In this document: positions 16,869-44,528 of the stretch, piece after piece
Numbering within the stretch: position 1 is the first letter of the stretch
Layout: each line of letters begins with the position of its first letter
From: Spirochaetota bacterium
GTDB taxonomy: Bacteria > Spirochaetota > UBA4802 > UBA5550
Direction: 5' to 3'
Length of the DNA: 64,000 nucleotides
Assembly: GCA_963664815.2 (NCBI GenBank)
Contig: CAXXHB010000002.1
Span: forward strand, 544,001-608,000
Notes under the pieces: generated by a model
Told to the model about the DNA's origin: nothing
Seen by the model: only the letters and a program-made list of their open reading frames with translations
Databases searched by the model: none
Position numbers and translations under genes: made by a program

Positions 16869-19658
16869 ATGAAAAGTAAGCATTATATTATGATGTCAGT
16901 ACTGGTTCTGGCAATTACAATATCAGGTATTATATCATATAAATTTTCTTCGAGTTTGTTTTCAAATCCCTTCAATAGAGATTTTCACTATGAAAATCCA
17001 TCCTACTCGATAACAGACAATGAGGGGAGTAATTATGTAATAGATCGCTCAATGAGGCGTATTGTTAAAATAGATGTACGTGGAAATCTTTCATGGATTA
17101 TTGAAGGGGGATCAAGGGAAAGAGGTTCTTTTTTTTATGCCTATGAGATAGCGGTGGACGAGCGAGGAATGCTTTATGTAATAAATGGTGTTCTTGATAA
17201 TGAAGGGTTTTTCATGGTAAGGGAGGAAATTCTCCGTTACAGTGCTGCCGGAGTTTTTGAAGAGGTTATATATTCAAAAAATTATAAATCTGAAGAAAGA
17301 GGTCCTTCTCTTGTTCAGCGCGGACAATTTCTTTCATTACATGCAGAGAAGCAGACAGTCGAATGGTTTGATATCGACAATCAAGGCATACAGTCAATAC
17401 GCGTTGTTATGCCTCAGAGATCTGTCGAAAGGAAGACCGGGGTCTTTTTAAAAAATGCCAACCTTCTTGTTTCAAGTGCAGTACGTCATTCAGATGGATC
17501 TGTCATCTATTGTACAAAAAAGGGAAAAATATATATATCTGCAGATCAGAGTGATGGATTATTATTATATTCCGCAGATGATCATAAAGAAGGTCTTTCA
17601 ATACCATGGTGGGTAGCAGTTGATAAAAAGGGGATTATATATTTTACTGATTTAGGAAGCCGCTCTGTATTGCGTTTAAATCCTGATAAAACTCCGGATA
17701 CAATTTTATCCAAAGAAATAATAGAAAAAGCTGGATTACAGACTGGTTCTTTTATCTATTACAGGTTCAGCATAAATAAAGATGGAATGATTACAACCTG
17801 TAACGATTATTATACTGTGGTTTTGTCAGCTGATGGGAAAAGCATTGTACGCTATTCAGATGGCGGCAGAATTTCTTTAAGTAATGTAATATTAAAAGTT
17901 TCAGGCTGGTCTGTTTTTATCATAGGAACAATATTTGTAATAATAGCTGCAATATTTGGTTATATTAAAATTCTTAACCGGCGTATTCCGCTTATGATAA
18001 AGCAGGTTCTGATTTTTGTACCAATGCTTATTGTATCAGTTGCATTACCCGCAAACATGATTATAGAAGATTTTTCAGAGCGTTATAAAGAAGAATTAAA
18101 CAAAAAAATTTCTCAGATGGTACAGGTGGCACCTAAAGTAATTAATCCTGATGATCTTAAACGGATAATCAAACATGAAGATTATATGAGTGATTCATAT
18201 AACAGAGTCAGGGGTTCACTGCTTGAGGCATTTAATTACAACAATGATGACTGGAACAGGGGATTCTATTTTGCAATCTATCGGGTTTATCAGGATAATA
18301 TTTATGGATGCATGTATCTTAACGGAGGAATAGGAATATATTATCCTTTTACATATTTTGATGATCCTCAAAGCATATATCGCAACGCATATAAAGGGCA
18401 AATTGTTACTGAATCGCTGAGTGATGCATTTGGAAGCTGGTTGTACGGTGTAGGTCCCATATATGACAGGGATGGAAAGGTGACGGCGATTATAGAAGTC
18501 GGAACAGATCTTTACAGTTATACCCAGGCGAATAACAGGCTTATTATGAAAATGCTGGTTCGTATATTTCTTATTACAGTTCTTTTTGTTATACTTTTAA
18601 TGATTGTAACCTATCTATTACTTGTCTCGATTAAACGACTCAGCTCCGGTGTAACCAGACTTTCTCAGGGGGAGTGGGAAACTAAAGTAAGTATTGGTAA
18701 ACGGAACGATGAGGTTTCGGACCTTGCGCAGGGTTTCAACAGGATGTCGGAGTATATACTGAATTATATTAATGAAATAGTAAATCTCAATAAAGGATAT
18801 CAGCGTTTTGTGCCTGAACAGTTTCTGCATTATCTGGACAAGGAGAACGTTACACAGGTTCAGCTTGGCGATCAGGTACACAAAGTGATGACTGTAATGT
18901 TTTCAGATATCCGTTCATTTACTACACTTTCAGAGAAAATGACTCCGAAGGAAAACTTTGATTTTCTGAATTCCTACCTTAAGCATGTTGGGCCGGTAAT
19001 ACGGGAAAACAACGGGTTTATTGATAAATATATTGGTGATGCTGTTATGGCGCTGTTCCCTCACTCAGCGGATGATGCCCTGGAGGCAGCTATAGGTATT
19101 TTTGAAAATCTTCATGATTTCAATGAAAACCGCGAGAAGATAGGGGAACCCCCTATTGAAATAGGATTGGGTCTTCATACCGGGCCTCTTATGATGGGAA
19201 TTATTGGTGAGGATGAAAGGATGGAAGGGACTGTGATCTCCGATAATGTGAACTTTGCTTCACGTCTGGAGGGACTTACAAAGCACTACGGAGCACGTAT
19301 ACTTATAAGTGAAATGACATATAAACAGCTCGCTCATCCGGAACGTTATCTTATACGGAACCTTGGAAAAGTTAAGGTTAAAGGGAAGAATGAACCTGTT
19401 TCAGTATATGAGGTAATGGATCCCCTTCCCTTCAAACAGAAATCAATGAAAATTAAAACAAAAGATGTTCTTGAAAAAGGGATAGCGCTTTATCAGCATA
19501 AACGGTTTTCAGAGGCGCTTGAAAAATTTAATAAAATTCTGGCTGTTGATAAAAATGATAAAATTGTAAACAAGTATTACAATATCTGCAATGTATGCGC
19601 GGAAAACCCACCTGACGCAGTTGATTGGGATGGTACTCTTGAAATGAGGGAAAAATGA
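16869..19658 (+). CDS. Membrane-bound class III adenylyl cyclase with beta-propeller plus Cache-like sensor and HAMP domain
   Basis: Cyclase motifs FSDIRSFT, DKYIGDAVMALF, TVISDNVNFASRLEGLTK and VKGK. HAMP motif RNDEVSDLAQGFNRM. The N-terminal region is paralogous to that of the preceding gene. Confidence 0.9.
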   Translation: MKSKHYIMMSVLVLAITISGIISYKFSSSLFSNPFNRDFHYENPSYSITDNEGSNYVIDRSMRRIVKIDVRGNLSWIIEGGSRERGSFFYAYEIAVDERGMLYVINGVLDNEGFFMVREEILRYSAAGVFEEVIYSKNYKSEERGPSLVQRGQFLSLHAEKQTVEWFDIDNQGIQSIRVVMPQRSVERKTGVFLKNANLLVSSAVRHSDGSVIYCTKKGKIYISADQSDGLLLYSADDHKEGLSIPWWVAVDKKGIIYFTDLGSRSVLRLNPDKTPDTILSKEIIEKAGLQTGSFIYYRFSINKDGMITTCNDYYTVVLSADGKSIVRYSDGGRISLSNVILKVSGWSVFIIGTIFVIIAAIFGYIKILNRRIPLMIKQVLIFVPMLIVSVALPANMIIEDFSERYKEELNKKISQMVQVAPKVINPDDLKRIIKHEDYMSDSYNRVRGSLLEAFNYNNDDWNRGFYFAIYRVYQDNIYGCMYLNGGIGIYYPFTYFDDPQSIYRNAYKGQIVTESLSDAFGSWLYGVGPIYDRDGKVTAIIEVGTDLYSYTQANNRLIMKMLVRIFLITVLFVILLMIVTYLLLVSIKRLSSGVTRLSQGEWETKVSIGKRNDEVSDLAQGFNRMSEYILNYINEIVNLNKGYQRFVPEQFLHYLDKENVTQVQLGDQVHKVMTVMFSDIRSFTTLSEKMTPKENFDFLNSYLKHVGPVIRENNGFIDKYIGDAVMALFPHSADDALEAAIGIFENLHDFNENREKIGEPPIEIGLGLHTGPLMMGIIGEDERMEGTVISDNVNFASRLEGLTKHYGARILISEMTYKQLAHPERYLIRNLGKVKVKGKNEPVSVYEVMDPLPFKQKSMKIKTKDVLEKGIALYQHKRFSEALEKFNKILAVDKNDKIVNKYYNICNVCAENPPDAVDWDGTLEMREK

Positions 19659-23718: not shown

Positions 23719-26403
23719 TTATACTTTTTCCAGCTTTACTGCACAGGCTTTATATTCGGCAGTTTTTGTCTCGGGATCAAAAACGTTGTTTGTAAGCCAG
23801 TTGGCATTGCCTTCCCGGAAATGAAATGACATCCACACAAGTCCTGCAGATACTTCATCAGTAACCCTTGCCCGCACTTTCACTGAACCGCGGCGCGATG
23901 TAACCTTAACATAATCGTGGTGTTTTATGCCGAGCTTTTCAGCATCAGCGGGGGATATGTCTGCGGTCTCTTCGGAGAGCATCATGTCAAGACCTGATCG
24001 GCCGGTCTGTGTCCTGGTATGGTAGTGGTAAAGCCTGCGTCCTGTGCTGAGAATAAATGGATATTCAATATCAGTTACTTCCGCAGGCGGAGTCCATTCA
24101 ACTGAAGCGAAGAGACCCTTCCCTCGCGTGAATTTTCCGTTTTTGTGCAGAAATTTTGTACCCGGATGTTCCGTGTCAGGGCATGGCCACTGAAGACCGT
24201 CATTTTCGAGTCTGGAATATTTTATGCCTGACAGTGACGGAGCGAGTGTTGAAACTTCCTTATCCCAAATATCCTGCGCGCTTTCAGATTTCCATTCGTA
24301 TCCCATCCGCCTTGCTAATTCCCTGAATACCCACCAGTTCGGCATTGCTATACCTGGCGCATCTTTGATTTTCCTTACCCTGTTTACCCGGCGTTCGCTG
24401 CTGGTGAATGTCCCTTCATCCTCACACCATGCGGCAGCAGGGAAAATTACATGTGCGTACTTTGTCGTATCAGTGTGGAATATATCGTTACATACAATGA
24501 ATTCAGCAGATTCCAGTTCATGATGCACGTGATTCATGTTAGGTTCAGTGTTGGCCAGGTTCTCCCCGAATATGTAAAATCCCCTTATTTTCTTTAACGG
24601 GAGAGATGCCATCATGTCAGGTATCATTATACCAGGTTTTTCCGGAAGATTTGAAACGTCCCATGCTCTCATGAACTTTTCACTGGCAGCAGGATCGTCA
24701 ACTCTCTGGTATCCCGGGAACAGATTCGGTAAAGCGCCCATGTCGCAGGCACCCTGTACATTGTTCTGACCCCTGAGTGGGTTTACACCAGCGCTCTCCA
24801 TCCCCATATTTCCAAGCAGCATCTGGAGGTTTGCTATGGATATGACGTTGTTTTTGCCGCATGTATGTTCAGTAATGCCAAGTGTGTAGCAGACCATTCC
24901 AGGTTTCACTGATGCCATTGTGCGCGCGATAACTCTGATGATATCCGGGTCCACACCGCATATCTCTGACGATCTTTCCGGTGTATAATCCATAACTGTG
25001 GATTTCATTTCATCAAAATGCTCTGTGTTTTCTTCAACGAACTTTTTATCGTATAAATTTTCTGTTATGAGTACATGCATGATTCCGTTAAGGAACGCAA
25101 CGTCAGATCCTGCACGGATTTCTGCGAAGATATCTGCTCTTCGCGCAAGCTCATGCCTGCGCGGATCCACAACAATAATTTTAGCGCCTCGTTTTTTTGC
25201 CCGCTTGACGAAGTATGAAGCAACCGGATGAGCCTCGGTCATGTTTGTCCCTATAAGAAAAAACAGTCTGGCCTTTTCGAACTCAGAAAAAGAATTTGTC
25301 ATAGCCCCTGAACCGAAGGATGCTGCCAGACCGGCAACAGTCGGGGCGTGTCAGGTTCGGGCACAGTGATCAATATTGTTTGTGCCCAGCACCCCCCTGA
25401 AAAATTTCTGCATGTTATACGAGTCTTCGTTGGTGCTCCTCGCGCAGCTGACCCCTGCCAGAGCATCCGGCCCTGATTCATCAATTATCTGTCTGAATTT
25501 TGACGCAACAAGATTGAGCGCCTCATCCCATCCTGCCTCTCTGAAACTTTCCCCTTCCCTGATCAGAGGCGTTTTAAGTCTGTCGTCTGAATATATGAAA
25601 TCGTATCCGTAACGTCCTTTCACACAGAGGTGCCCCCTGTTGGGCTCTGCTCCCTCTGATCCTGTGACACGGATGATACGGTCACCCTTTACGTGCAGTT
25701 CCAGCTGGCACCCTACCCCGCAGTAAGGACATGTAGTACGTACTTTTTTTCTTTCCCACACGCGTCCCATACCTGCACCCTTTTTTTCGATAAGAGCACC
25801 AACAGGGCAGAGCTGGACGCATTCACCGCATTGGACACATGAAGATTCACCCATTGGCTTGTCGTCATCACATATAACCTTTGTAAGATCACCTCTGTAG
25901 CCGAAATCGAGCACCTCATTCACAACAAGATTGTTGCATCCCTCAACGCATCTTCCGCATTTGATGCATTTGTCCTGGTCGCGTCTTATAAAAACGGCAG
26001 AGTCATCTTTCGCAGAAAGCTCTTCTGCGATAAATGCCGGGGCTTCGATCCCCAGCCTGTACGCGGCATTCTGAAGCTCGCAGTCTCCGTTCATTTCGCA
26101 TGAGATACAGTTGTGTTTTCCATTCGAGAGTAGCAGGTTAACTATTAGTTTGCGGGCTTCCATTATACGGTTACTTTCTGTTGTTACCTCCATTCCCGGA
26201 AACGGAAGAAGAGAGCATGCAGTCTGAAGGTTCTGCATGCCTTCAACTTCTATAACGCAGATTCTGCACACTCCGGCCTGTCCTGTTCTCTGATGGTGAC
26301 AAAGCGATGGTATGTAGATTCCGTTTTCTCTTGCAGACTGAAGGACAGTTTTTTCTTTATCAACCGGGATTGCTGTTTTATTTATAAAAAATATATCGTT
26401 CAT
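23719..26403 (-). CDS. fdhF: Selenocysteine-containing formate dehydrogenase alpha subunit (894 aa, UGA at 25353-25351 read as Sec)
   Basis: Two in-frame ORFs join across TGA as [30 protein letters not shown]. N-terminal [2Fe-2S], His/Cys cluster, two [4Fe-4S] motifs and CPYCGVGC. Molybdopterin motifs PLRGQNNVQGACDMG and EYKACAV. Confidence 0.95.
25321..25339 (-). promoter_or_regulatory. Bacterial SECIS element
   Basis: 11 nt 3' of the UGA, the minus strand reads TGTTGCC-GGTCT-GGCAGCA, a 7-bp stem with a GGU-containing loop like the E. coli fdhF SECIS. Confidence 0.85.
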
Positions 26404-26424: not shown

Positions 26425-28188
26425 CTAACATTTTATAAGATCATCAAACTCAGTCCTGAATTTTGAGATCATCGCAATTATCGGTACGGTGAAGGCTTCG
26501 CCCATAGGACAGATTGTAAGTCCACGGATGCTGCTGCAGGTGCGAAGAATGAGATCTATGTCATCCATTTTTCCTCTGCCCGTGACAATTGCACCAAGCC
26601 TGTTTTTTATAATACGAGTTCCCTCTCTGCAGGGGACACACTGGCCGCATGATTCATGATGGTAGAATTCAATTGTCCTCAGTGCAAGTTCCGGAATAGA
26701 CACGAAATCATTTATAACAATGACAGCACCTGAACCGAGAGATGTCCCTTTTTTCAGGCACGAGTCGTAATCGAGTATAAGCCCGTCAGCTTCACCGGCA
26801 GTAATAATTGCCGAAGAGAGACCTCCGGGAATAACTCCTTTAAGGTTTCCTTTCACTCCGCCGGCTGCATTAATCAAGACATTAAGAGGAGTACCAAGCG
26901 GATATTCAAAGATCCCGGGTTTGTTCACATGGCCTGAAATGCCGAAGAGTTTCGGTCCGGAGTTGTTCACTGTTCCAATATTTCTGAAAGCTGCTGCACT
27001 TTTTAAAATAATAAAAGGGACGCATGAAAGTGTTTCAACATTGTTAATCACAGTGGGGAAGCCATATAACCCGCTGTTTGCCGGAAATGGCGGCTTCATC
27101 CTGGGATTACCCCTTTTACCTTCGAGAGATTCTATCTGTGCAGTTTCATCACCGCACACGTATGAACCACCGCCACGATGCACAACAATCTCTGTATGGC
27201 TGAGCAATCCGGCATTCTTCGCTTCGTTTATTGCAGTTTCAAGAATATCTGCGATCCAAGAAAATTCACCGCGTATATATATAAATGCTTTTTCTGCATT
27301 TACCGCACTGGCGCTTATGGCAATCCCCTCAATAAGGAGGTGAGGGTTAAATTCCATTATCTGTCTGTCTTTAAACGTTCCAGGCTCACCTTCATCAGCG
27401 TTGCATATGAGGTAAACAGGACGCTTGTCGTCTTTCGGGAGATAAGACCACTTCAGACCCGCAGGGAAACCGGCACCACCGCGGCCACGTAAGCCAGATT
27501 CTTTAACTTCATCAATAATATCCTCCGGCTTCATGGACAGTGCCTTTGAGAGTGCGCTGTACCCTCCATGTTGTATATAATATGCAAGAGATCTGCATTC
27601 CGGGTTAGTTCTGTCATTGAGGAGTATCCCGAAATGCGATACAACATTTATCGAGGGATCATTAACGGGATCAGCTCCATTTCTCAGCGCGTCTATAAGC
27701 GCATCAATTTTCTCAATGGTCATGTTCTCAAAATAGCGGTCATTTACCTGCAAAACAGGCCCTGTTGCGGATGAACCGAGATCCTGCACAGAAGAGAGTG
27801 TAAACATCCCGTCTGCAGTGGTTTCGCCGTCGCTTATATAAAGTTTGTTGCAGAGATGTTCCATTATTGCATCAGCTCCATGCAGAAATCCAGGTACGCA
27901 TGTATCGAGCTGCAGGTGGTACTTTCCCACCGGCTTTGTGTTGAACATCGTGTAGTAGGTCGATATGCCGTAAACACTGCTCATGCTAATGCCTGTAATA
28001 GCGGCAGCCTTTGACCTGGCATTGCTGTCAAGATAATTGCTGTTTTCTTTCTGCAAATGCTGTAAAACAGGCATAATAGCAGATTTTTTTTCCGGATATT
28101 TATCTGAAATAAATGTATAGGTATTATTTTTTTCTTTTTTCATAAGGGTCTTTTTTTTAAATATATTAATTTCTTTTATCAATTTCAT
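26425..28188 (-). CDS. NuoE-NuoF fusion (NADH/FMN-binding diaphorase subunit of the FDH)
   Basis: Motifs SGLRGRGGAGFP, CNADEGEPGTFKDR, YVCGDET and ESCGQCVPCREG...IC. NuoE-like N-terminus (STYYTMFNTKPVGKYH). The true start may be 28143. Confidence 0.9.
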   Translation of the reverse strand: MKLIKEINIFKKKTLMKKEKNNTYTFISDKYPEKKSAIMPVLQHLQKENSNYLDSNARSKAAAITGISMSSVYGISTYYTMFNTKPVGKYHLQLDTCVPGFLHGADAIMEHLCNKLYISDGETTADGMFTLSSVQDLGSSATGPVLQVNDRYFENMTIEKIDALIDALRNGADPVNDPSINVVSHFGILLNDRTNPECRSLAYYIQHGGYSALSKALSMKPEDIIDEVKESGLRGRGGAGFPAGLKWSYLPKDDKRPVYLICNADEGEPGTFKDRQIMEFNPHLLIEGIAISASAVNAEKAFIYIRGEFSWIADILETAINEAKNAGLLSHTEIVVHRGGGSYVCGDETAQIESLEGKRGNPRMKPPFPANSGLYGFPTVINNVETLSCVPFIILKSAAAFRNIGTVNNSGPKLFGISGHVNKPGIFEYPLGTPLNVLINAAGGVKGNLKGVIPGGLSSAIITAGEADGLILDYDSCLKKGTSLGSGAVIVINDFVSIPELALRTIEFYHHESCGQCVPCREGTRIIKNRLGAIVTGRGKMDDIDLILRTCSSIRGLTICPMGEAFTVPIIAMISKFRTEFDDLIKC

Positions 28189-28564: not shown

Positions 28565-29302
28565 ATGAAACTTGCTGAACTTGCTGATTTAAAAGAACTT
28601 CAGAAACTCTGTGAAAGCTTTACAGCATTCACCAATGCCGTAACAGCAATAATTGATCTGGACGGAAATATTTTTACATCAACAGGGTGGCGGGATATCT
28701 GCACAAACTTCCATCGTGTTAATCCCCATACGGCTTTAAGATGCAGAGAAAGCGATACAGTTCTTTCAGAACAGATAAATAACGGGGATACATATAAAGT
28801 CTACAAATGCAAAAACGGACTTATCGATGTTGCCGTACCGCTTATTATCGGAAATCAACATGTTGCTAACTTTTTTACCGGTCAGTTTTTTTTTGAAAAA
28901 CCGGACAAGGATTACTTTATATGCCAGGCTGAAAAATTCGGATTTGATAAAAAATCCTATATGGATGCACTTGACAGAGTACCAGTCTATTCCGAAGAAT
29001 ATATCTTTAAAATGATGAATTTTCTTACAAATCTTGCTCGCGTTATAGGTGAATCAGAGATGGCCCGGAAAAAAGTTGAAGCCATCCGTGAACAGCTTAT
29101 AATCGAATTGAACAATTCAGAAAAAAAAATTAAGACTCTAAGCGGGCTCCTCCCGATATGTGCTTCTTGTAAAAAAATCAGGAATGATGAGGGTTACTGG
29201 GAACAGATAGAAACATATGTCAGTGAACACACTGAGGCTGACTTCAGTCACAGTATCTGTCCTGATTGTGCAAAAAGACTTTATCCTGAACTGATTATTT
29301 AA
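28565..29302 (+). CDS. PocR ligand-binding domain protein with C-terminal Cys-rich (zinc-ribbon-like) motif
   Basis: PocR motifs GWRDICTNFHR..CRESD, YKCKNGL and TGQF. C-terminus LPICASCKKIR..YWEQIE..FSHSICPDC. Confidence 0.85.
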   Translation: MKLAELADLKELQKLCESFTAFTNAVTAIIDLDGNIFTSTGWRDICTNFHRVNPHTALRCRESDTVLSEQINNGDTYKVYKCKNGLIDVAVPLIIGNQHVANFFTGQFFFEKPDKDYFICQAEKFGFDKKSYMDALDRVPVYSEEYIFKMMNFLTNLARVIGESEMARKKVEAIREQLIIELNNSEKKIKTLSGLLPICASCKKIRNDEGYWEQIETYVSEHTEADFSHSICPDCAKRLYPELII

Positions 29303-29742
29303 ATTTCATTTAAACAGAATCGTATTGAGTACTTAATGTCTGGATTGATACGATTTTCCATAGACCCGCTTTTGCTGAAATACGAAAAAGTAGATTTGTT
29401 TTTCACTATAAGTCAGGTCTTTCTGTGTATCACACGGTAATTATACTACACGAGAATATAATATACAGGTTATTACAATGTATTACATGCATGTAAATAT
29501 TTAACGTAAAAAACGTTTAATAAGAATCATCAGATATAATAGATTACAAACCCAAGTATAGAAACAACATGCATCAATTTTTATTGTTACACCGTTGTTA
29601 ATTATAGAGCTCTCTTTCTGTATATGCACTGTAACTCTTGACGGCATTTAAATTGTTTTTTTCATATAATGAATCATATGTTCGTTTTCCGGTCTTATCA
29701 GAGAGGAGAGAGAACATATACATTTAGCTACATATTTATTAA

Positions 29743-30120
29743 ATGGAGAAAACCATGAAGATGCTTATTGTAGACGATTCATTTGTTATCCGCAAAACAA
29801 TTGAGAAATATGCTGCTGAACTGGGAATAGAAAATATTCTGACTGCTCATAACGGCATCGAGGCGATAAAAATATTTAAAGCAGAGTTGCCATCTCTGGT
29901 AACCATGGATATAACAATGCCGGAAATGGATGGAATACAGTGTCTTGATGAAATAATGAAGATAGACCCTGACTCGAAAGTAATAATGATTACAGCCCTT
30001 AAAGATAATTCTACCGGCATGCTTGCATTGAAGAAAGGGGCTTCCGGATTCCTTCATAAACCATTTACGTCTGAACAGATAAGAGATGAAATAATGGCAG
30101 TTACCGGAGCAGAACTATGA
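29743..30120 (+). CDS. Single-domain response regulator (CheY-like)
   Basis: Motifs VDDS, MDITMPEMDG (phospho-Asp), MITA, KPF. Confidence 0.92.
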   Translation: MEKTMKMLIVDDSFVIRKTIEKYAAELGIENILTAHNGIEAIKIFKAELPSLVTMDITMPEMDGIQCLDEIMKIDPDSKVIMITALKDNSTGMLALKKGASGFLHKPFTSEQIRDEIMAVTGAEL

Positions 30121-30563
30121 CAGAACGGGAACTGAAGTATTTTATTGATGTTGTAGTAAACTATTTCCGCAATATTTCTGGTGAGCCTTCAGAGATGGGT
30201 ATACCATTTATCAAAGAAAAAGAGAATACGTTGCTTGACTATACCGGGCTTATCGGCATTTCCGGGGCAAAAAAAGGTGCTATATATCTGACATCGACAA
30301 AAGAGATGCTGGCTGATATCACATCCATTCTTCTTGGAGAAGACAGTCCAGGGGAAGAACTGATTGTAGATATGGCCGGAGAGATTGCAAACACTGTTGC
30401 AGGGAATGTTAGAGAGAATTTTGGTTCTTCTTTTATGATATCAGTTCCTATAATACTTAAAGGGAGTCCGGATGATGTTATTATAAGGATGGTCCCTCCG
30501 ATATTTATTATACCAATAAAATGGCGGGTATTCAGCGCCTATCTTGCCGTTGGTCTTGAATAG
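30117..30563 (+). CDS. cheX: Chemotaxis phosphatase CheX
   Basis: YTGLIGISG and DMAGEIANTVAGN (E-x2-N motif), ISVP. ATGA overlap with the CheY-like gene. Confidence 0.85.
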   Translation: MTERELKYFIDVVVNYFRNISGEPSEMGIPFIKEKENTLLDYTGLIGISGAKKGAIYLTSTKEMLADITSILLGEDSPGEELIVDMAGEIANTVAGNVRENFGSSFMISVPIILKGSPDDVIIRMVPPIFIIPIKWRVFSAYLAVGLE

Positions 30564-30574
30564 GAGGATTGTTA

Positions 30575-33307
30575 ATGGAAAAGACTTCAATAGATATATT
30601 GTGGATATTGACTGCGTCTGCGCTGGTATTTGTCATGAGAGCCGGATTTGCCATGCTTGAATCCGGTATAGTCCGTTCAAAAAATTCAATTAATGTTTCC
30701 GTAAAAGTTCTTTCTGATCTGGCAATTTCTCTTGTCGTGTTCTGGCCCATAGGTTTTGGTATAATGTTCGGTTCTTCATGGCATGGGTTAATAGGTACAA
30801 ATTTTTATTTTCCACATCTGTCAGGAATGTATATATCGGTATTTTTTCTTTTTCACGCGATGTTTACATCCACAAGTGCAACTATAGTTTCCGGAGCAGT
30901 TGCCGAAAGGATTAAATATCCGGCGTACCTGATAATCACTCTGATCTTTTCAGCTGTGATTTATCCGGTATTTGGCCACTGGGCATGGAATAATGGAATA
31001 TCCGGTAGTACCCCCGGATGGCTCGTTAAACTAGGGTTCATTGATTTTGCGGGGAGTACTGTAGTACATAGTATCGGAGGATGGATGTCCGCTGCAGTAA
31101 TTTTAATTCTGGGTCCAAGGATCGGCAGGTATAATGAAGATGGTTCAGTAAACCGTGTGACAGGTTCTAATACCCAGACGGCGGTTGTAGGAACGATATT
31201 GTTATGGTTCGGCTGGATCGGGTTTAACGGAGGATCGACTCTTGCGATGAATGATGCAGTCCCGGGAATAATTGTAAACACATGTCTTTCCGGGGCAGCG
31301 GGATTTGTTGTGACACTTATTGCGGGATGGTATATCCGCGGATTTGCTGATGTTGGTCTGGTTGTAAACGGGACCCTGGCGGGTCTGGTTGCTGTGACGG
31401 CATCATGCGCATACGTTAATGAATGGCAATCTATGGTTATCGGTGCAATTGGTGGACTGGTAATGCTTCTTGTAGAATGGCTGATAGACAGGCTGAAAAT
31501 CGATGATGCGGTTGGTGCCATCCCTGTTCACCTGGGAGCCGGGATCTGGGGTACTCTTGCGGTGGGTCTTTTCAGCGACATGAAGCTACTTGGAACTAAC
31601 CTAACAAGAATTCAGCAGACAGGAGTTCAGCTGGCAGGGATTCTGGCGGCAGCTGTCTGGGCTTTCGGTGTAGCCTTTATTGTCATCTGGACGATAAACA
31701 GGATTTTCCCTATACGTGTGAAACCTGAAGATGAATACCAGGGCCTGAACATTTCGGAACACAGGGCATCGACTGAAATTTATGATCTTTACAATTCGCT
31801 GGAGGAACAGGCGAGGACAGGAGATCTTTCAATAAGGATACATGAGGAACCCTTTACAGAAATGGGACAGATCGCAAGACGTTATAACCAGGTGATAGCC
31901 ACGCTGGAGGAGAACCTTGTAGCAAAATCTGATTATGTAAGCATACTGGATAATGTCAGCGACGGGCTGTTCCTGATGGACAGGGATAACAGAATTGCAC
32001 CGCATTATTCGGGATCACTCGAAAAGATATTTGAACAGACTTCTCTGGCCGGAATCAGCTTTGATAAATTACTGGATGGGCTTGTGTCTGAAAAAGATCT
32101 GAATTCATTCAAAGAGTATTCATTAATGCTTTTTGACAGTAAATTTTCTTTTCGTACTCTTGAGAAACTGAATCCGCTGAAAAAAATCGGGATATTTATA
32201 GATGACAGAAAAGGAGGGTTTCTCTCCAAACATATTGAATGCAGTTTTTTAAGGATTACAGAAAATAATACAATATCAAGGGTTATGGCCATTGTCAGGG
32301 ATGTTACCGCAGAGACAGAACTCACTTCAGAGATGGAGAAGGTTAAAGAAAGGAGTCAAAGAGAGATGCAGATGTTCTACCGTATATTACGGATAGAACC
32401 TGCGATGTTTATCGAATTCCTTTCAAATCTTGAAGAGAACATTTCTAAAATCAACGAAATACTTGAGTTTGAAAAAGGGAGTCTTGTTGAAATGCTTAAT
32501 GAAATGTATAGATATGTTCATTCAATTAAAGGAGATGCTAATCTGTTTGAGCTTGATTTTCTTGCACAGAAGGCCCATAATTTTGAAAGCCGGATTGAGG
32601 AACTGCTTCAGAATACCAGTCTTGAGAATGCTGATTTTATTCCACTTGCGGTAATGGTTTCTGAACTTCACAGCACAGTAACACAGATGCAGCTTCTAAT
32701 AGAGCAGATACTGTCGTTCCAGAAAGATTTTTCATCGCATAACAACAGTTCTGAAGAGCTGATAGTATTTTCAGTAAAAAATACAATAAACAGGCTGACA
32801 GGAAAAACAGGAAAGATAATAACAATTGACTCGAGCGGGTTTGATATCCTGAACATACCTGTAAATCTACGGAAAAAAGTAAAAGAAATATTTATACAGC
32901 TGGCACGGAATTCTGTTATACATGGCATTGAAACCCCGGAAGAGAGAATCGCGGCAGGAAAGAATCACACCGGTCAGATAAAACTTTCAGCAATAAAAAA
33001 AGATGATTGTGTTGTTATCTCATACAGTGATGACGGCAGAGGAATTGATTTTGAAAACCTTGGAAAGAGTGCAGCCGGGACTGGTCAAAGACCGGATAGT
33101 GAGGTATCTCCTGCTTCAAGAAAAAAGCTGATCGAACTTATGTTTCAGCCGGGTGTTTCAACTTCTGAAACTGCAGATCTAGATTCCGGACGGGGTATAG
33201 GAATGTTTCTGGTAAGAAGGACAATCGCCGAACTGAACGGACGGATAACGGTAAAGACAAGGAAGGGTGAATTCTGCGAATTTGAATTTGCAATTCCCTG
33301 CGCGTGA
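30575..33307 (+). CDS. Ammonium transporter (Amt) fused to PAS, Hpt and CheA-type histidine kinase domains
   Basis: Amt motifs GFAMLESG, SGAVAER, DFAGSTVVH, WFGWIGFNGGS, DDAVGAIPVH. PAS-like ILDNVSDGLF. Hpt VHSIKG. HATPase RNSVIHGIE, DDGRG, SGRGIGM. RBS GGAGGA. Confidence 0.9.
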   Translation: MEKTSIDILWILTASALVFVMRAGFAMLESGIVRSKNSINVSVKVLSDLAISLVVFWPIGFGIMFGSSWHGLIGTNFYFPHLSGMYISVFFLFHAMFTSTSATIVSGAVAERIKYPAYLIITLIFSAVIYPVFGHWAWNNGISGSTPGWLVKLGFIDFAGSTVVHSIGGWMSAAVILILGPRIGRYNEDGSVNRVTGSNTQTAVVGTILLWFGWIGFNGGSTLAMNDAVPGIIVNTCLSGAAGFVVTLIAGWYIRGFADVGLVVNGTLAGLVAVTASCAYVNEWQSMVIGAIGGLVMLLVEWLIDRLKIDDAVGAIPVHLGAGIWGTLAVGLFSDMKLLGTNLTRIQQTGVQLAGILAAAVWAFGVAFIVIWTINRIFPIRVKPEDEYQGLNISEHRASTEIYDLYNSLEEQARTGDLSIRIHEEPFTEMGQIARRYNQVIATLEENLVAKSDYVSILDNVSDGLFLMDRDNRIAPHYSGSLEKIFEQTSLAGISFDKLLDGLVSEKDLNSFKEYSLMLFDSKFSFRTLEKLNPLKKIGIFIDDRKGGFLSKHIECSFLRITENNTISRVMAIVRDVTAETELTSEMEKVKERSQREMQMFYRILRIEPAMFIEFLSNLEENISKINEILEFEKGSLVEMLNEMYRYVHSIKGDANLFELDFLAQKAHNFESRIEELLQNTSLENADFIPLAVMVSELHSTVTQMQLLIEQILSFQKDFSSHNNSSEELIVFSVKNTINRLTGKTGKIITIDSSGFDILNIPVNLRKKVKEIFIQLARNSVIHGIETPEERIAAGKNHTGQIKLSAIKKDDCVVISYSDDGRGIDFENLGKSAAGTGQRPDSEVSPASRKKLIELMFQPGVSTSETADLDSGRGIGMFLVRRTIAELNGRITVKTRKGEFCEFEFAIPCA

Positions 33308-33314
33308 GGGTTGA

Positions 33315-34568
33315 ATGAATATAGATTATACCAAACACGAAGATGGTACTGAGCAATTTGATATTGATCCTGTGATCTCAGGCAGCGATAACTATCGGAC
33401 TCCGGGTGTTCTCAGGCTGTATAAACGCAAACGACCCCGGGGAAGAACTTTCAGCATATCAAATATTGCTTCCGGTTTTTTTTATGTGCACCGCGATGCT
33501 CTGATTGGGGATGTTGTTGAAGATATGAATACCCATGAAACACTCCTTGCAGTAGGGATGGTAGGTGATGAAGGTGAAGCCCTGGGGGTCATTACCAGAA
33601 GAGAACTTTTTAATCTTCTGGGCAAATCATTCGGAGAAGATGCTGCTAAGGATATGCCTGTATCAAGAATTGCTAAAACTACAGGCATTTACCATGAGGA
33701 CGCAAATACTCTCTCTGTTTCGGAACAGATTGCCGATGAGATGAAAAAACCGACACTCCGATTTTTTCTGATATCAGATTCTGACGGTAAGTTTGCTGGT
33801 ATTTTTTCAACCCGGGATATTATGATGCATCTTGCTGCAATTACCAGGCAGGATATTGATACAGCAGGAGCAATACAATCGCGTATCGTGCCTGAAAATA
33901 CATTTATAGTAAATGGAAGGGTAGAAGCGGCAGCATCAACACAGATGGCTTTGGGCGTAGGCGGCGATTTTTACTCGATAAGATCCTTCCCTGATGAGAA
34001 ATGGTTTTTCCTGACGGCAGATGTATCTGGTAAAGGTATGGGAGCATCACTTCTGACATCCATTGCCGGAGGGTTTATCCATATGTATAATTTTTCCGGC
34101 GGAATAAAGCAGCTTATAAAAAAACTTAACAGTTACATTTTTAACACATTTGATTCTGAAAAGTTCATTACATCGGTTTTCATGACACTTGACGGCAATA
34201 TCGGAGATTTATCAATTTGCGATATGGGACATTCAATGGTTTATCTTATGAGAAATAATAAAATGCACCATATCAAATCAGGACTGAATAATCTTCCACT
34301 TGGAATTGTTGAGGACATTGATCCTGCTTCTGTATTGCTTAAACTTAAACATGATGATATAATTCTGCTGGTAACGGATGGTGTTACAGAACAGCGGGAT
34401 ACAGATGAAAATGAATACAGTATTGACCGGTGTGGAGGCATAATTGCAGCGAACATAGAAGAATCGCTCGAGAAAATTATGAAACTGTTACGCGATGATA
34501 TAAACATTTTCAGGGGCGGGAAACAGCAGTATGATGATATAACATATATGCTGATAAGGTATAGATGA
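33315..34568 (+). CDS. CBS-pair plus SpoIIE/PP2C-type serine phosphatase
   Basis: CBS-like motifs LGVITRRE and GIFSTRD. PP2C motifs VGGDFY, ADVSGKG, TDGVTE, DDIT. Confidence 0.88.
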   Translation: MNIDYTKHEDGTEQFDIDPVISGSDNYRTPGVLRLYKRKRPRGRTFSISNIASGFFYVHRDALIGDVVEDMNTHETLLAVGMVGDEGEALGVITRRELFNLLGKSFGEDAAKDMPVSRIAKTTGIYHEDANTLSVSEQIADEMKKPTLRFFLISDSDGKFAGIFSTRDIMMHLAAITRQDIDTAGAIQSRIVPENTFIVNGRVEAAASTQMALGVGGDFYSIRSFPDEKWFFLTADVSGKGMGASLLTSIAGGFIHMYNFSGGIKQLIKKLNSYIFNTFDSEKFITSVFMTLDGNIGDLSICDMGHSMVYLMRNNKMHHIKSGLNNLPLGIVEDIDPASVLLKLKHDDIILLVTDGVTEQRDTDENEYSIDRCGGIIAANIEESLEKIMKLLRDDINIFRGGKQQYDDITYMLIRYR

Positions 34569-37819: not shown

Positions 37820-38173
37820 ATGAAAGAAAGAAACAAATCCAGGGTAGTATTTCACGTTAACGCTTCGATTGAGTATGACGGAAATATTGTAAATGGAGAT
37901 GTTGAAAATCTAAGCACAAACGGGATGTTTATGAATACGAAAGAGAACATACCGGTAGAGAAGGAAGTGGAGGTCTCCATATATCTTTCAGGGACAACAT
38001 CTGAATTGAGCCTTAATATTAAAGGTATAGTTGTCAGGAAGGATGCAAAGGGCGTTGCTGTTAACTTTAAAGAGATAGAATTTGATTCTTTCATTCATCT
38101 CAGGAATATTATTGAATTCAATACAGCAGGAAACAGTGAAGTGATGAAAGAGTTTACACAGGAAAGGAAATGA
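37820..38173 (+). CDS. PilZ domain protein (c-di-GMP receptor)
   Basis: RxxxR (ERNKSR) and NLSxxG (NLSTNG) motifs. RBS AGGAG. Confidence 0.85.
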   Translation: MKERNKSRVVFHVNASIEYDGNIVNGDVENLSTNGMFMNTKENIPVEKEVEVSIYLSGTTSELSLNIKGIVVRKDAKGVAVNFKEIEFDSFIHLRNIIEFNTAGNSEVMKEFTQERK

Positions 38174-41259: not shown

Positions 41260-42048
41260 ATGATTCATCTGAAAAAAGAAAAATCCCGGTTAAAAAAGAA
41301 ATTAACCCTCTATTTTTTACTCATTGCAGTTGTTTCAATTTCAGTTAGTGTTGAAATGATTTTCGAGTTCAGTTCGGCTAAATTCCGGAATGACATAAGG
41401 TCTCAGCTCATTAAAGAAGTACAGCAGGGAGTACCGGGTGAATATGTAGTAAAACTTAATATTGAAAAATTAAACACAGCAATTAATAACCCGATAAATG
41501 ACTTAAGGAACAGAATGATTCTTCTTCTCCTTGTAATATGCGGAAGTATAGTTGGCGCTTTTATTATGTTCGCGAAGGATATTGTTTCACCAATGGACAG
41601 TATAGTTGATGCTACAAAAAAAATTGCCGATGGCGACCTCACTGTAACTGTTCCGGTTATATCTGATGATGAAATAGGACAGATAGCCACTCTTATAAAT
41701 GACATGAATATAAATCTTCAGGATATGATTATGCAGATAAGGCAGGAGATATCGAGGCATAAAAATAAAATTCTGGAAGCCGGAATAATAATTACCTCAC
41801 TAACTGATAAAAACAGCGAGGAGATTTTAAAGAACAGGAAAATGAAAGTTTCGGATTATAAAAAAATGATGGGATTAAGTAATGATGTAGTGAAACTCCT
41901 TGATACAATGCTGATTGATCTTGGAGCTCTGGAAAATTTTGTTAAAATGTATAAGACTTACTCAATACATACAGAGATTAATCAGAAAGAGCTCGATAAG
42001 GTGTTAGATCAATATAATGTCAGGTTAGGTTCTGAGGAAGAGGAATAA
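41260..42048 (+). CDS. Two-TM HAMP domain protein without a recognisable output domain
   Basis: Two TM segments and HAMP (IVSPM..IADGDLT..DDEIGQIATLINDM), followed by a short coiled tail. Confidence 0.8.
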   Translation: MIHLKKEKSRLKKKLTLYFLLIAVVSISVSVEMIFEFSSAKFRNDIRSQLIKEVQQGVPGEYVVKLNIEKLNTAINNPINDLRNRMILLLLVICGSIVGAFIMFAKDIVSPMDSIVDATKKIADGDLTVTVPVISDDEIGQIATLINDMNINLQDMIMQIRQEISRHKNKILEAGIIITSLTDKNSEEILKNRKMKVSDYKKMMGLSNDVVKLLDTMLIDLGALENFVKMYKTYSIHTEINQKELDKVLDQYNVRLGSEEEE

Positions 42049-42830
42049 TGAGTTTTGAATACTGGTATATGTTTCCTGTAGCTGTAGTCGTTTCGATACT
42101 TGCCAATTCATCCGGTTTTTCCGGCGGGGTACTATTCCAGCCGATCTATAATCTTTTTCTGAATATTCCTATTCAGAGTGCAGTGGCGACTGGAATTGCC
42201 ACTGAAACTATTGGAATGACAAGCGGTGCGGCAAGGTATATCTATTATAAGATGGTTGATCTTCCGATAGCATTTACTATGATAATGCTCACAATACCGG
42301 GTGTGGTTCTTGGAAATCATGCGCTCATTGTGATAAATGGTGATCTGCTTAAATTTATCCTTGGTTTCATTATTCTTTTTATCGCCACGATGCAGTTCAC
42401 TCATGCAGTAAGAAAATCTTTCGGTGAAAGAGACAGTGTTCCTGTTGAAGATATATACCCTTTTATGTGGATTCCGCCAATCAGCGGATTCTTTTCTGCG
42501 GCGACAGGAACAGGTGTATGTGAGATCTCACAGCCGCTTCTTGAAAAGGGCTTAAATCTTAAAACAAAAAGAGCTAATGCTACAGCCATAATGATTGAAG
42601 CAACTGCCGACTGGATAATAACAATACTGAACATTCATGCAGGATTTATCATGTGGAAGTTGTGGATCTTCACCGGTACAGGAGTAATCATCGGAGGTCA
42701 GATTGGTCCATATATTTCGCGATATCTTCCGGAAAGATTGATTAAAATTATATTTTCAATTTCTATAATTCTCATTGGCATGTTTTATATTTATAAAGGA
42801 TATCTCTGGTTTACTAAAGGGCGGGTCTAA
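42048..42830 (+). CDS. Sulfite exporter TauE/SafE family protein
   Basis: Motifs SGFSGGVLFQP, AVATG, GVIIGGQIGP, about 8 TM. TAATG coupling to the previous gene. Confidence 0.85.
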   Translation: MSFEYWYMFPVAVVVSILANSSGFSGGVLFQPIYNLFLNIPIQSAVATGIATETIGMTSGAARYIYYKMVDLPIAFTMIMLTIPGVVLGNHALIVINGDLLKFILGFIILFIATMQFTHAVRKSFGERDSVPVEDIYPFMWIPPISGFFSAATGTGVCEISQPLLEKGLNLKTKRANATAIMIEATADWIITILNIHAGFIMWKLWIFTGTGVIIGGQIGPYISRYLPERLIKIIFSISIILIGMFYIYKGYLWFTKGRV

Positions 42831-42839
42831 ACATATTTT

Positions 42840-44528
42840 ATGGGACTTATTTTTTTCCTTGAAAGCACAGCGGGACAGGGTGTTCTTTATTTCAGCCAGA
42901 CTCTTCTTTTTTCTGTAATGCTTTATATTCTTGCCGCAGAGTTTATCCGTACCAGAGATAAAACTCTGGTTTATAAGCTGATGGCTTCGTGCAGTATAAC
43001 TTTTGTTAGTGGTGGAACTGCTCTTATATTTATTCTTGATTCTTTTTATAATATTAAAATAACCCAGAAATATTTCCCTTTGATATTCAACGGACTCTTC
43101 GCCATTGTTGTCATTTCCCTGGCTAGGGCTTTTACTTATGAATTTGTTTCAAACAGAGACAGGTTTCAGAAGCTGATAAATTCAGGAATTATTCTTTCAT
43201 GCGTGATATATATTGTAATGCAGATTTACTGGCTTAGCATTTTTACTCCGGGTATGGAGTTCTGGAAGTCAGATCTTCAATTAATATTTTCACTATTCTT
43301 TATTTTTATGGTCATTTTTTCAATATACCATCTTGTGAGATTCAGGAAGAGTTATAAATTAAGACTGGTAACAGGTTTCTCTTCAATCGCCATTGTACAG
43401 ATGATTAATATTTATGGTTCCATTACGAATTACATTCCACCGATTCTTTTCATAATCAAGGCCGCTGCACCGATGCTTGTTCCTGTAATGTTTACAAGCG
43501 TTGTATTCAAGGAATTAATAGGAAGAGTTGTATTAATGGTGGAGCAGATAAGAATAACTTTCGATCATCAGAGGGAGTTAATTTTTGAACTTATAAATAT
43601 AGGCGTAGATCTCTCCTCGATGTCGGATAATCTGGTAAAGGCTGCTCTTGACGGATGGTCTAAACTCTCGTTCGTTGTAGAGACTATAAGGGAACAGATA
43701 AAGGACAGTGATTCATTGAATGAAATTACAAAAGCATCTTCTGAAAGATTAAAGTCGCTTAATCTGAAATCAGTTGAAGAGTCTGTGAATAAACTGATAG
43801 AGAATGCAGTAATATGTTATAATAATGATGATAATGTGTCAAACGGCTTATTCCATGAAATAGTGACAGGGATGGAAAAGACATCAAGACTGGTAGCTGA
43901 ATCGTCTATCGATAGTGAGAAACTTAAAGAATTGCTCCCCGCAGTAAACTCGGCACTTGATAATATTGATGATATTTCTGACAGAACAAATATTCTTTCG
44001 CTGAATGCATCTATTGAAGCAGCAAGAGCCGGTGTTAACGGGAGAGGATTTGCTGTTGTTGCCGAGGAGATCGGCAGACTTGCTGAGAATTCTCTGGCCG
44101 GTTCCAGAGAGGTAAGAAGAAACATTTCAGAGATAATAAATCTCTTCAGAGAATACGAAGAAAAATCGGTAGTTTCGGTTAAAGAGATGAACAGGCTGCT
44201 GGAAAAGCTCGGGGTAATGGGATCTGTAGCTGAGAAAAAAACAGATATAGAGATCGATCCCGCTGTATCGGAAGGAATAAGAACAGGGATTGAATTATAT
44301 AACTCGGTTGTAGGGGAGATTGTAAGAAAAGTGGATAATGTAGAGACAATAACCGGGAGAAGCCGTATCCATGCAGAGGAGATGAAAAATAAAATCAGTG
44401 AACATATCAGAAACATTGAATCATTTGCCGGTATCAGCGATATGATAAATGATCTTGTTGCCAAGCTTAACAGCAAAATTAATGTAATAATTGAGCAGAC
44501 AGGGGAGCTGGAAAAGCTGACTTCGTAG
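42840..44528 (+). CDS. Methyl-accepting chemotaxis-like protein with multi-TM N-terminus
   Basis: Signalling hairpin [34 protein letters not shown] and about 7 N-terminal TM helices. Confidence 0.88.

Follow-up and report, generated by a model that had tools for sequence, protein, structure and literature searches.

A Conserved Fusion of a Receptor-Type Amt Module with a CheA-like Kinase Core, Encoded with CheY-like and CheX Partners, as a Candidate Ammonium-Sensing System in Spirochaetota

Overview

A 64,000-nucleotide stretch of contig CAXXHB010000002.1 (assembly GCA_963664815.2, positions 544,001 to 608,000 of the forward strand) from a Spirochaetota bacterium of the lineage UBA4802; UBA5550, referred to here as the window and numbered from its first letter, carries at positions 29743–34568 four head-to-tail open reading frames (ORFs) on the + strand. 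According to the ORF list and to Pfam, these encode a CheY-like receiver, a CheX-family phosphatase, an Amt-containing kinase of 910 amino acids (aa), and a phosphatase of the CBS–SpoIIE type. In the kinase, which is the central subject of this work, the Amt module looks like that of an ammonium receptor and not like an uptake transporter, and is followed C-terminally, in one ORF, by a cytoplasmic transducer with the order HAMP-like–PAS-like–Hpt–P4. As judged from the sequence, this combination of an AmR-type ammonium receptor with a CheA-type kinase core is real and conserved, and its domain anatomy, its catalytic and site residues, and the gene cassette to which it belongs can be read directly. 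The protein is considered, with reasonable but far from complete confidence, to be an ammonium-gated receptor kinase feeding a dedicated CheY-like/CheX pair. In the full texts searched (including PMC5764959, the text and supplements of PMC11152129, and PMC10782961, with subscription journals and figures such as Fig. 7B of PMC11152129 outside the scope), neither an Amt fused to an Hpt or CheA-type kinase nor a cassette of response regulator, CheX, and kinase genes was found, in agreement with the original prediction made from the letters of the window, which knew of no characterized example.

The Amt Module and Its Receptor-Type Signature

The Amt module of the kinase (30599–31771, + strand) matches Ammonium_transp with an E-value of 8.8e-112 over residues 11–401 and is assigned to the receptor (AmR) type. 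In a phmmer search of PDB sequences, it scores 388 bits against Sd-Amt1 (8qj3) and 329 bits against Ks-Amt5 (6eu6), while the transporters Af-Amt1, Mep2, and AmtB reach 191, ~149, and 128 bits, respectively. Both of these solved receptor relatives are described as mainly binding and not transporting (PMC11152129). In Sd-Amt1, a lateral two-ion site, designated N1/N2, is formed by Q22, E29, K44, N45, D48, T104, S107, and Y119, and Asn269 constricts the cytoplasmic exit, a position at which assimilatory Amts have a Ser residue (PMC11152129).

These signature residues were mapped onto the 910-aa protein, whose numbering applies to these residues, through a HMMER alignment with Sd-Amt1. The module of the window retains E29, K44, D48, T103, S106, Y118, and N265, all of them invariant in 36/36 aligned relatives, and N265 aligns with Asn269 of Sd-Amt1. 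The selectivity path is equally invariant in these 36 sequences, including W136 and S221 of the Trp/Ser vestibule, F97 and F217 of the Phe gate, and the twin His residues H165 and H319, so that the twin His (VVHSIGG, IPVHLGAG) and the Phe gate recognized by the original prediction are both present. Moreover, the signature set is found wherever the corresponding residues exist in all 93 full-length Amt-kinase relatives tabulated, with the exception of P0093, which is N-terminally incomplete.

In the same genome, a P-II gene follows each of three more Amt genes. Two of these P-II-linked Amts have Tyr at position 29 and lack the N1/N2 ligands, and the third is devoid of K44 and D48, leaving the fused copy as the only one in the genome with the full retained set. 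In Af-Amt1, a Tyr at the equivalent of position 29 obstructs the side pocket (PMC11152129). At the exit position of N265, the paralogues L001 and L002, both linked to P-II genes, have Thr. The proximity of the Amt module to Sd-Amt1 and Ks-Amt5, together with the sensing-site residues that it retains, makes the ammonium-sensor reading of the original prediction plausible, with the reservation that two ligand positions are substituted in the window protein (Q22R and N45V).

The Cytoplasmic Kinase Part

The cytoplasmic part was modeled with AlphaFold2 (AF2) as residues 402–912 from a 28-row alignment, with a mean pLDDT of 83 and a pTM of 0.41. The chain leaves the Amt module through a HAMP-like helix–connector–helix linker (31775–31951, + strand; AF2 helices 2–16 and 30–60 of the C-terminal model), which carries the conserved motif EPFTEMGQIARRYN, with the pattern P-F-x-E-x-G-x-I-A-x-x-Y-N running from P426 to N438; P426, F427, E429, G431, I433, A434, Y437, and N438 are invariant in 36/36 relatives. 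This linker had been missed by the original prediction, which placed a PAS-like domain after the Amt module. The PAS-like domain itself (31964–32302, + strand) stands on the AF2 model, where it adopts a mixed sheet/helix (alpha/beta) fold with pLDDT mostly of 84–93, and on Foldseek, which aligns the whole C-terminal model to the PAS-histidine kinases 9a5d and 4gcz, while the match by sequence is sub-threshold.

The PAS-like domain is followed by an Hpt helical bundle of the CheA-P1-like type (32306–32743, + strand; Pfam Hpt E 5.6e-07, residues 613–681), in which the phospho-accepting His of the HSIKG motif is His649 of the 910-aa protein (codon 32519–32521). A sequence search with this bundle retrieves the P1 domain of CheA from the PDB with an E-value of 0.004. 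The Hpt His, Lys+3, Gly+4, and Glu+22 are invariant in 28/28 sequences and align with H48, K51, G52, and E70 of E. coli CheA, residues which we take to have catalytic roles. The chain ends with a CheA-P4-type ATP-binding catalytic domain (32750–33307, + strand; HATPase_c E 2.6e-12, residues 769–910), supported by the CheA entry 6s1k in the PDB sequence search (E 1.1e-26) and by the CheA P4 structure 1i5a in Foldseek (TM-score 0.82, root-mean-square deviation (rmsd) 2.2), and the invariance in 28/28 sequences extends to the residues of its N, G1, F, and G2 boxes. When five CheA proteins of the same genome were compared by hhalign, P4 was the only part aligned (residues 334–511, probability 100%).

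Not all CheA domains are found in this arrangement. At E<=0.01, Pfam gives no match to P3, the domain for dimerization (H-kinase_dim), in the kinase, while the positive control recovers H-kinase_dim in 2/3 CheAs of the same genome that were scanned (E 1e-13 to 3e-17) and CheW in 3/3; a single Foldseek match to a P3P4 structure (4xiv) extends over 258 columns at an rmsd of 18 and does not decide the matter. No match to P5/CheW is obtained at the same threshold, the genome having 17 CheW-domain matches elsewhere, and none to HisKA/DHp, the conserved His lying within the Hpt-type bundle. Thus, the 910-aa fusion of Amt, Hpt, and CheA-class ATPase without a CheW domain described by the original prediction is borne out by Pfam, and its CheA-class assignment holds for P1 and P4 but not for the dimerization domain. 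By its domain content, the kinase is CheA-like, not a CheA, with P1 and P4 present, no detectable P3, and no P5/CheW. Since there is no P3 dimer, the Amt trimer known from the family is the likely scaffold, in place of an array of CheW and MCP proteins.

The CheY-like, CheX, and CBS–SpoIIE Partners

The first gene of the cluster encodes a CheY-like single-domain response regulator (RR; ORF 29743–30120, + strand, 125 aa; Response_reg E 2.1e-26), which, among PDB sequences, matches CheY proteins best (6er7, 100.8 bits; 1tmy, 82 bits). D11, D12, D56, and K106 are invariant in the RRs of 20/20 cassettes, and position 103, that of the aromatic switch residue, is occupied by F or Y; the codon of the phospho-acceptor Asp56 is at 29908. 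The RR gene does not lie within a flagellar or che operon, and the genome has a single close paralogue of the RR (40% identity), located ~1.4 kb from a CheA-type ORF with CheW and CheX domains. At ~3161036–3166382 of the genome (G000:C3), a 1124-aa open frame combines a CheA HATPase with CheW and CheX domains and has CheW and CheY-like genes close by, resembling the CheA–CheC/CheX fusions reported for Leptospirae (PMC10782961).

The product of the second gene (30117–30563, + strand, 148 aa) belongs to the CheX family (E 4.1e-16, 59.2 bits versus a cut-off of 27). Residues 88–92 read GEIAN and contain a single E-x2-N, which we take to be the CheX active-site motif. Its PDB matches are the CheX/CheC-like structural-genomics entries 3h4y and 3hm4 (E 4e-10), Thermotoga CheX being weaker (E 0.007), and it scores 23.7 bits against the NCBIfam equivalog for Thermotogales CheX, far under the cut-off of 280.

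The fourth gene (33315–34568, + strand, 417 aa) encodes a CBS–SpoIIE phosphatase of the PP2C type (SpoIIE E 3.8e-33, 115.5 bits; CBS E 2.5e-10), in which the catalytic or metal-binding Asp columns D218, D236, D303, D355, D407, and D408 are invariant in 36/36 sequences. The genome yields 28 SpoIIE and 25 STAS matches and, therefore, a partner-switching target of this phosphatase could lie elsewhere in it. A complex prediction for the RR with the CBS–SpoIIE protein, run without controls, gave a score of 0.00, which counts neither for nor against binding, and no N-terminal docking motif shared between the CBS–PP2C proteins and the PAS–cyclase proteins that take their place in other genomes was seen by eye.

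Conservation of the Cassette

Gene order was taken from 401 genomes sampled within the phylum, because a locus search with the alignment as a query had picked up patterns of the Amt domain and returned mostly plain Amts or other Amt fusions, with L029 as the only full-length relative. The kinase module was detected at E<=1e-30 in 45 genomes of the sample, and 20 loci were annotated with Pfam and tblastn, 17 of which encode an Amt-kinase. The fusion was verified in 18/401 genomes, with conserved neighbors. In all the Amt loci (18/18, the window and 17 others, not all independent, since two pairs come from the same genus each), the RR and CheX genes stand immediately upstream of the Amt-kinase in identical order and strand. 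The dedicated CheY-like and CheX partners proposed by the original prediction are, thus, a constant feature of the Amt loci, and the search of architecture and synteny that it had called for found both the fusion and its neighbors conserved.

In contrast with the RR and CheX genes, the fourth gene varies among the 17 loci where it could be assessed (L150 is cut). It encodes a CBS–SpoIIE phosphatase in five (the window, L131, L132, L133, and L142), a PAS–class III cyclase in four (L135, L136, L138, and L139), and neither of them in eight. The CBS–PP2C protein, which had been suggested to add an adenylate or energy input or a partner-switching output, keeps its Asp residues and is a variable accessory of the system (5/17 loci). 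In L136, the PAS–cyclase gene (1500–2460, − strand) is split over two reading frames by a frameshift or an assembly error. In L133, a genome of the same family with an RR–CheX–Amt-kinase–SpoIIE cluster, a nifH gene (Fer4_NifH, E 1.5e-125), accompanied by two small ORFs, lies divergently at 8348–10000, ~800 bp upstream of the cluster. A link to nitrogenase was considered and rejected, as a divergent nifH occurs only in L133 and a true nifH is absent from the genome of the window, where the best match reaches 44 bits.

Amt proteins are not the only carriers of the kinase module, which is also found behind Reg_prop/Y_Y_Y, GAF, PilJ, 7TMR-DISM, dCache, and HAMP sensors. From 1.84 billion proteins, a HAMP–PAS–Hpt profile retrieved 1,053 representative clusters with a threshold of E<=1e-30, and 4,728 when this was relaxed to E<=1e-10, mostly of 550–1,500 aa and with the module at varied offsets. 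Ten clusters that were looked up bear generic names only and come from Spirochaetales, Spirochaetia, and Thermoanaerobaculia, and further relatives of the module occur in Moraxella and Calditrichaceae. An RR–CheX pair adjoins or lies near 24/24 non-Amt paralogues examined (L021, L147–L149, and L151–L170), being directly upstream of the kinase in 20 of them, directly downstream in L163 and L166, after a downstream cyclase in L169, and ~2.7 kb downstream in L147. The system built on a transporter, as originally proposed, is thus supported insofar as an Amt is fused to a kinase with RR and CheX partners, but RR–CheX–kinase is a general cassette that is not built around Amt.

One of these non-Amt cassettes is located in the genome of the window itself (L021 3780–8611, at G000:C3 ~2456780–2461610). 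Its kinase of 686 aa has an N-terminus of no known domain followed by Hpt and HATPase_c, and motA and motB come next. The proximity of motA/motB was treated as a coincidence, since tblastn found them in 0/20 other paralogue loci, two of which are from the same genus.

A Coupled Substitution in the Sensing Site

The window protein has Arg at position 22 and Val at position 45, in place of the Gln and Asn of Sd-Amt1 and Ks-Amt5. Of the 93 full-length relatives (>=850 aa; P0100 and P0103, which have no Amt, were excluded), 73 show the Q/N pair, 18 the R/V pair, and 2 are N-terminally incomplete, with no mixed forms. On a quick FastTree phylogeny with midpoint rooting, the R/V forms are distributed over five separate clades and require at least three changes by Fitch parsimony, and the five-member R/V clade of the window has an eight-member Q/N clade as its sister (support 1.0). 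All the other genome loci examined (18/18) have Q/N. Within the 93 relatives, the remaining seven signature residues and the full selectivity path are invariant in the R/V forms.

In Sd-Amt1, Asn45 ligates N1 as well as N2, and Gln22 touches N2 in the ammonium-free state (PMC11152129). Given these contacts, the recurrent pair of changes from Gln to Arg and from Asn to Val looks like a retuning of the site. The guanidinium group of Arg22 may be placed at or near the cation position of N2, next to Asp48, and could alter affinity or cooperativity. The coupled switch between R22/V45 and Q22/N45 is a natural experiment that addresses the two-ion site put forward on the basis of the Sd-Amt1 structures.

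Proposed Mechanism and Alternative Explanations

The Amt module would admit NH4+ through the usual selectivity path and, rather than being passed on efficiently, the ion would bind in the lateral N1/N2 pocket below the twin His. Occupancy of the pocket would be relayed via the HAMP-like linker and the PAS-like domain to the CheA-type P4 domain, which would phosphorylate the His of the Hpt (P1-like) domain in its own chain. In turn, the phosphoryl group would pass from Hpt to Asp56 of the co-transcribed CheY-like RR, and the co-transcribed CheX would quickly dephosphorylate the RR, allowing the signal to track ammonium on a short time scale. The phosphorylated RR may act on the flagellar switch, or its output may lie with the neighboring PP2C or cyclase. 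In line with an output on motility are the CheY- and CheX-like nature of the partners and two Amt–MCP fusions (L039 and L084) that plug Amt into canonical chemotaxis.

A number of observations weigh against this ammonium-gated kinase and its output. Two ligand positions of the receptor signature are not kept in the window protein (Q22R and N45V) and, because Asn45 ligates both N1 and N2 in Sd-Amt1, ammonium binding by this copy might be altered or even lost. Characterized transporters, for example plant AMT1, also carry the N1/N2 signature (PMC11152129), so that the signature is a lead and no proof of a receptor-only role. Within the cytoplasmic part, the pTM of 0.41 makes the domain arrangement of the AF2 model unreliable, the Pfam HAMP match in the linker is sub-threshold (E 0.008, 16.9 bits versus a 25-bit cut-off), and so is the PAS assignment by sequence (PAS_9, E 0.17 across the whole profile). 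The fourth gene is inconsistent across loci, the cluster has no adaptation enzyme, and the absence of motA/motB from the other paralogue loci speaks against a motor output. Finally, the ligand, the direction of regulation, the kinase activity, the phosphotransfer to the RR, and the trimer are inferred.

A much more speculative extension, which is held to be rather doubtful as a whole, would make the system a route into CheY signaling independent of the chemoreceptor array, which the original prediction had the transporter replace, with a trimeric Amt-derived receptor bringing its own P1–P4 kinase without P3, CheW, or MCP, the CheY-like protein acting on the motor, CheX serving as the sole reset, and ammonium taxis or kinesis in spirochaetes as the outcome. 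The Amt form would then belong to a large class of CheA-like kinases with fused sensors that has gone undescribed, and the Q22R/N45V pair would convert the two-ion site into a one-ion site. If so, the Arg would stand in for the second ammonium, leading to different response thresholds.

Among the alternatives, the one that deserves most attention, possible though less probable than the ammonium-gated CheY-like/CheX pathway, keeps the same sensor kinase and reduces the RR and CheX to a mere phosphate sink or timer. The output would be enzymatic, through the action of the PP2C on STAS partner switching or through cAMP/cGMP made by the class III cyclase, and would control gene expression or metabolism and not swimming. 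The translational coupling to the kinase of a fourth gene that is CBS–PP2C in 5/17 loci and PAS–cyclase in 4/17 is in line with this idea, as are the 28 SpoIIE and 25 STAS matches in the genome, a REC–cyclase that immediately precedes RR–CheX in the non-Amt loci L148 and L149, and a cyclase adjoining the kinase in L147 and L169. A direct Amt–SpoIIE fusion also exists (L032), together with an Amt–HAMP–phosphoprotein-phosphatase in SAR11 (PMC11796062). Nevertheless, neither enzyme is found beside the kinase in 8/17 Amt loci and in most of the 20 paralogue loci, where RR–CheX is always there, and the CBS–PP2C and PAS–cyclase proteins have no receiver domain and, hence, no obvious phosphoryl route. 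It is unlikely, in turn, that the Amt module is a working transporter (a transceptor) whose flux or conformational cycling, and not static binding, is reported by the kinase. In its favor, W136, S221, the Phe gate, and the twin His, which make up the whole route of conduction, are invariant, and the cluster-2 Amts with the N1/N2 motif include characterized transporters (PMC11152129); on the other side stand the invariant Asn265, equivalent of the exit-narrowing Asn269 of Sd-Amt1, the three Amt–P-II pairs that already serve uptake in the genome, and the report that both solved relatives mainly bind and do not transport (PMC11152129).

The substitution at positions 22 and 45 opens a further, quite improbable alternative, according to which the R22/V45 form no longer senses ammonium, being locked by its own Arg at the cation site or adapted to a different small cation or amine, and the PAS-like domain or another cue provides the input. 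Two ligand positions have indeed changed together (R/V in 18/93, never mixed with Q/N), in five clades and with at least three changes on the tree, and the 18 other genome loci are all Q/N. However, the invariance of the seven other signature residues and of the selectivity path in the R/V forms points to continued selection on the site, and a recurrent coupled change resembles tuning and not decay. As for an assembly artefact, which the original prediction had named as a reason to abandon its proposal, or a decaying gene, hardly any credence is left for either, with a single open frame, 93 full-length relatives, and 18 genomes with conserved neighbors against them and no point in their favor found. 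The ammonium-gated receptor kinase with its CheY-like RR and CheX is the reading retained here and, since a candidate RR and CheX occur in every locus examined, its path from ligand to regulator is testable with purified parts.

Organization of the Cluster and Neighboring Genes

The four genes are tightly packed, as originally described, with an ATGA overlap at the RR/CheX junction (the CheX start over the RR stop), 11 nt between CheX and the kinase, where the CheX stop falls within the ribosome-binding site of the kinase, and 7 nt between the kinase and the PP2C gene. The true start of the RR is probably the ATG at 29755 (MKMLIVDD), where its homologues begin. The ORF of the kinase (30569–33307) is open from a TTG at 30569, which would give 912 aa; since an AGGAGG lies 7 nt 5' of the ATG at 30575, the true product is taken as 910 aa (Amt–HAMP-like–PAS-like–Hpt–P4 sensor kinase, 30575–33307, + strand), in agreement with the original prediction and with the database representative P0001. 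The cluster is flanked upstream by an AT-rich intergenic region of 441 bp (29303–29742), the presumed promoter region, in which no specific promoter is called, and downstream by 330 bp of AT-rich intergenic sequence. A scan for sigma-70 promoters (24 found versus 25.8 expected) and one for terminators (4 versus 4.7) were not above shuffles. In accordance with the original prediction, no CheW, MCP, or P-II (GlnK) gene is found in the cluster, the closest MCP gene being at 42840–44528.

Directly upstream of the cluster, a gene at 28565–29302 (+ strand) encodes a 245-aa protein with a PocR sensor domain (E 4.8e-52) and a Cys-rich C-terminal tail (CxxC…CxxC), with no recognizable output domain. 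Its membership in the conserved unit was rejected, since tblastn gave a match in 0/20 loci (L131–L150). Further signaling genes of the window do not adjoin the cluster and are located within 16869–19658, 37820–38173, and 41260–44528; they encode a 929-aa HAMP–class III cyclase, one protein with PilZ and another with HAMP alone, and an MCP. Farther upstream, a formate-dehydrogenase-like molybdopterin protein (23719–26403, − strand) is listed as two ORFs (25351–26403 and 23719–25302), which form one continuous frame through '...CARTUHAPTV...' when the TGA at 25351–25353 is read as selenocysteine. This is likely a selenoprotein gene, and it adjoins a NuoF-like gene at 26425–28188.

Comparison with Known Systems

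Several Amt fusions and Hpt-dependent relays invite comparison. Among the loci found, further fusions of Amt to GGDEF/EAL and to HisKA kinases indicate that Amt serves as a general signaling input. Two fusions to the MCP signaling domain, one in a metagenome-assembled genome (MAG) of Rhodospirillales (L039 6001–8364, with HAMP) and another in a MAG of Spirochaetes (L084 4069–6330), are candidates for canonical, array-type chemoreceptors of ammonium. Moreover, a 712-aa ORF in a record of Leptospira ainazelensis (L032 6001–8136) fuses Amt directly to a SpoIIE PP2C and constitutes a gene-fusion link. This ORF and the SAR11 protein 'Amt-GI5' (PMC11796062) share with the present cluster an AmR-like Amt and a PP2C-type phosphatase; they differ in being one protein, with no kinase, CheY, or CheX involved, whereas here the two functions are encoded by adjoining genes, in 5/17 loci, and the PP2C has a CBS N-terminus.

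In Pseudomonas aeruginosa, the HptB–HsbR–HsbA pathway offers a precedent, an Hpt phosphorelay that controls a PP2C/STAS partner switch linked to motility. HsbR takes the phosphate on its own REC domain, whereas the CBS–PP2C protein of the cluster has none.

Sd-Amt1 from Shewanella denitrificans (Amt–HAMP–GGDEF, 8qj3; PMC11152129) is the closest characterized relative of the sensory half, being the top PDB match and sharing residues of the N1/N2 site, the exit Asn, and a HAMP-type linker that leads from the last transmembrane helix to a fused cytoplasmic transducer. A diguanylate cyclase serves as transducer in Sd-Amt1, whereas a PAS–Hpt–CheA-P4 kinase with dedicated CheY-like and CheX genes takes this place here, and Q22/N45 of Sd-Amt1 are replaced by R22/V45 in the window copy. 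Ks-Amt5 from 'Ca. Kuenenia stuttgartiensis' (6eu6, 329 bits) likewise joins an Amt module to a histidine kinase; ammonium-dependent autophosphorylation has been reported for it, no cognate response regulator being identified in that account (PMC5764959). It differs in having a class I kinase (DHp+CA) and no HAMP, whereas the protein of the window contains Hpt and a CheA-type P4 and no HisKA/DHp.

With CheA, the kinase shares the His/Lys/Gly/Glu constellation of P1, the fold and motifs of P4, and a CheY-like RR and a CheX phosphatase as partners. All CheA homologues examined in a survey contain Hpt, H-kinase_dim, HATPase_c, and CheW (PMC10782961), whereas P3 and P5/CheW are absent here and the protein has its own membrane sensor, HAMP-like linker, and PAS-like domain, on account of which it would need no chemoreceptor. 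The existence of a CheA catalytic core (P1 and P4) without P3 and P5, wired to sensors, bears on the evolution of CheA and on the purpose for which an array is required. Two Amt-fold receptors have been characterized so far, one with a class I kinase and another with a diguanylate cyclase, and the Amt-kinase family would add a third type of transducer to them.

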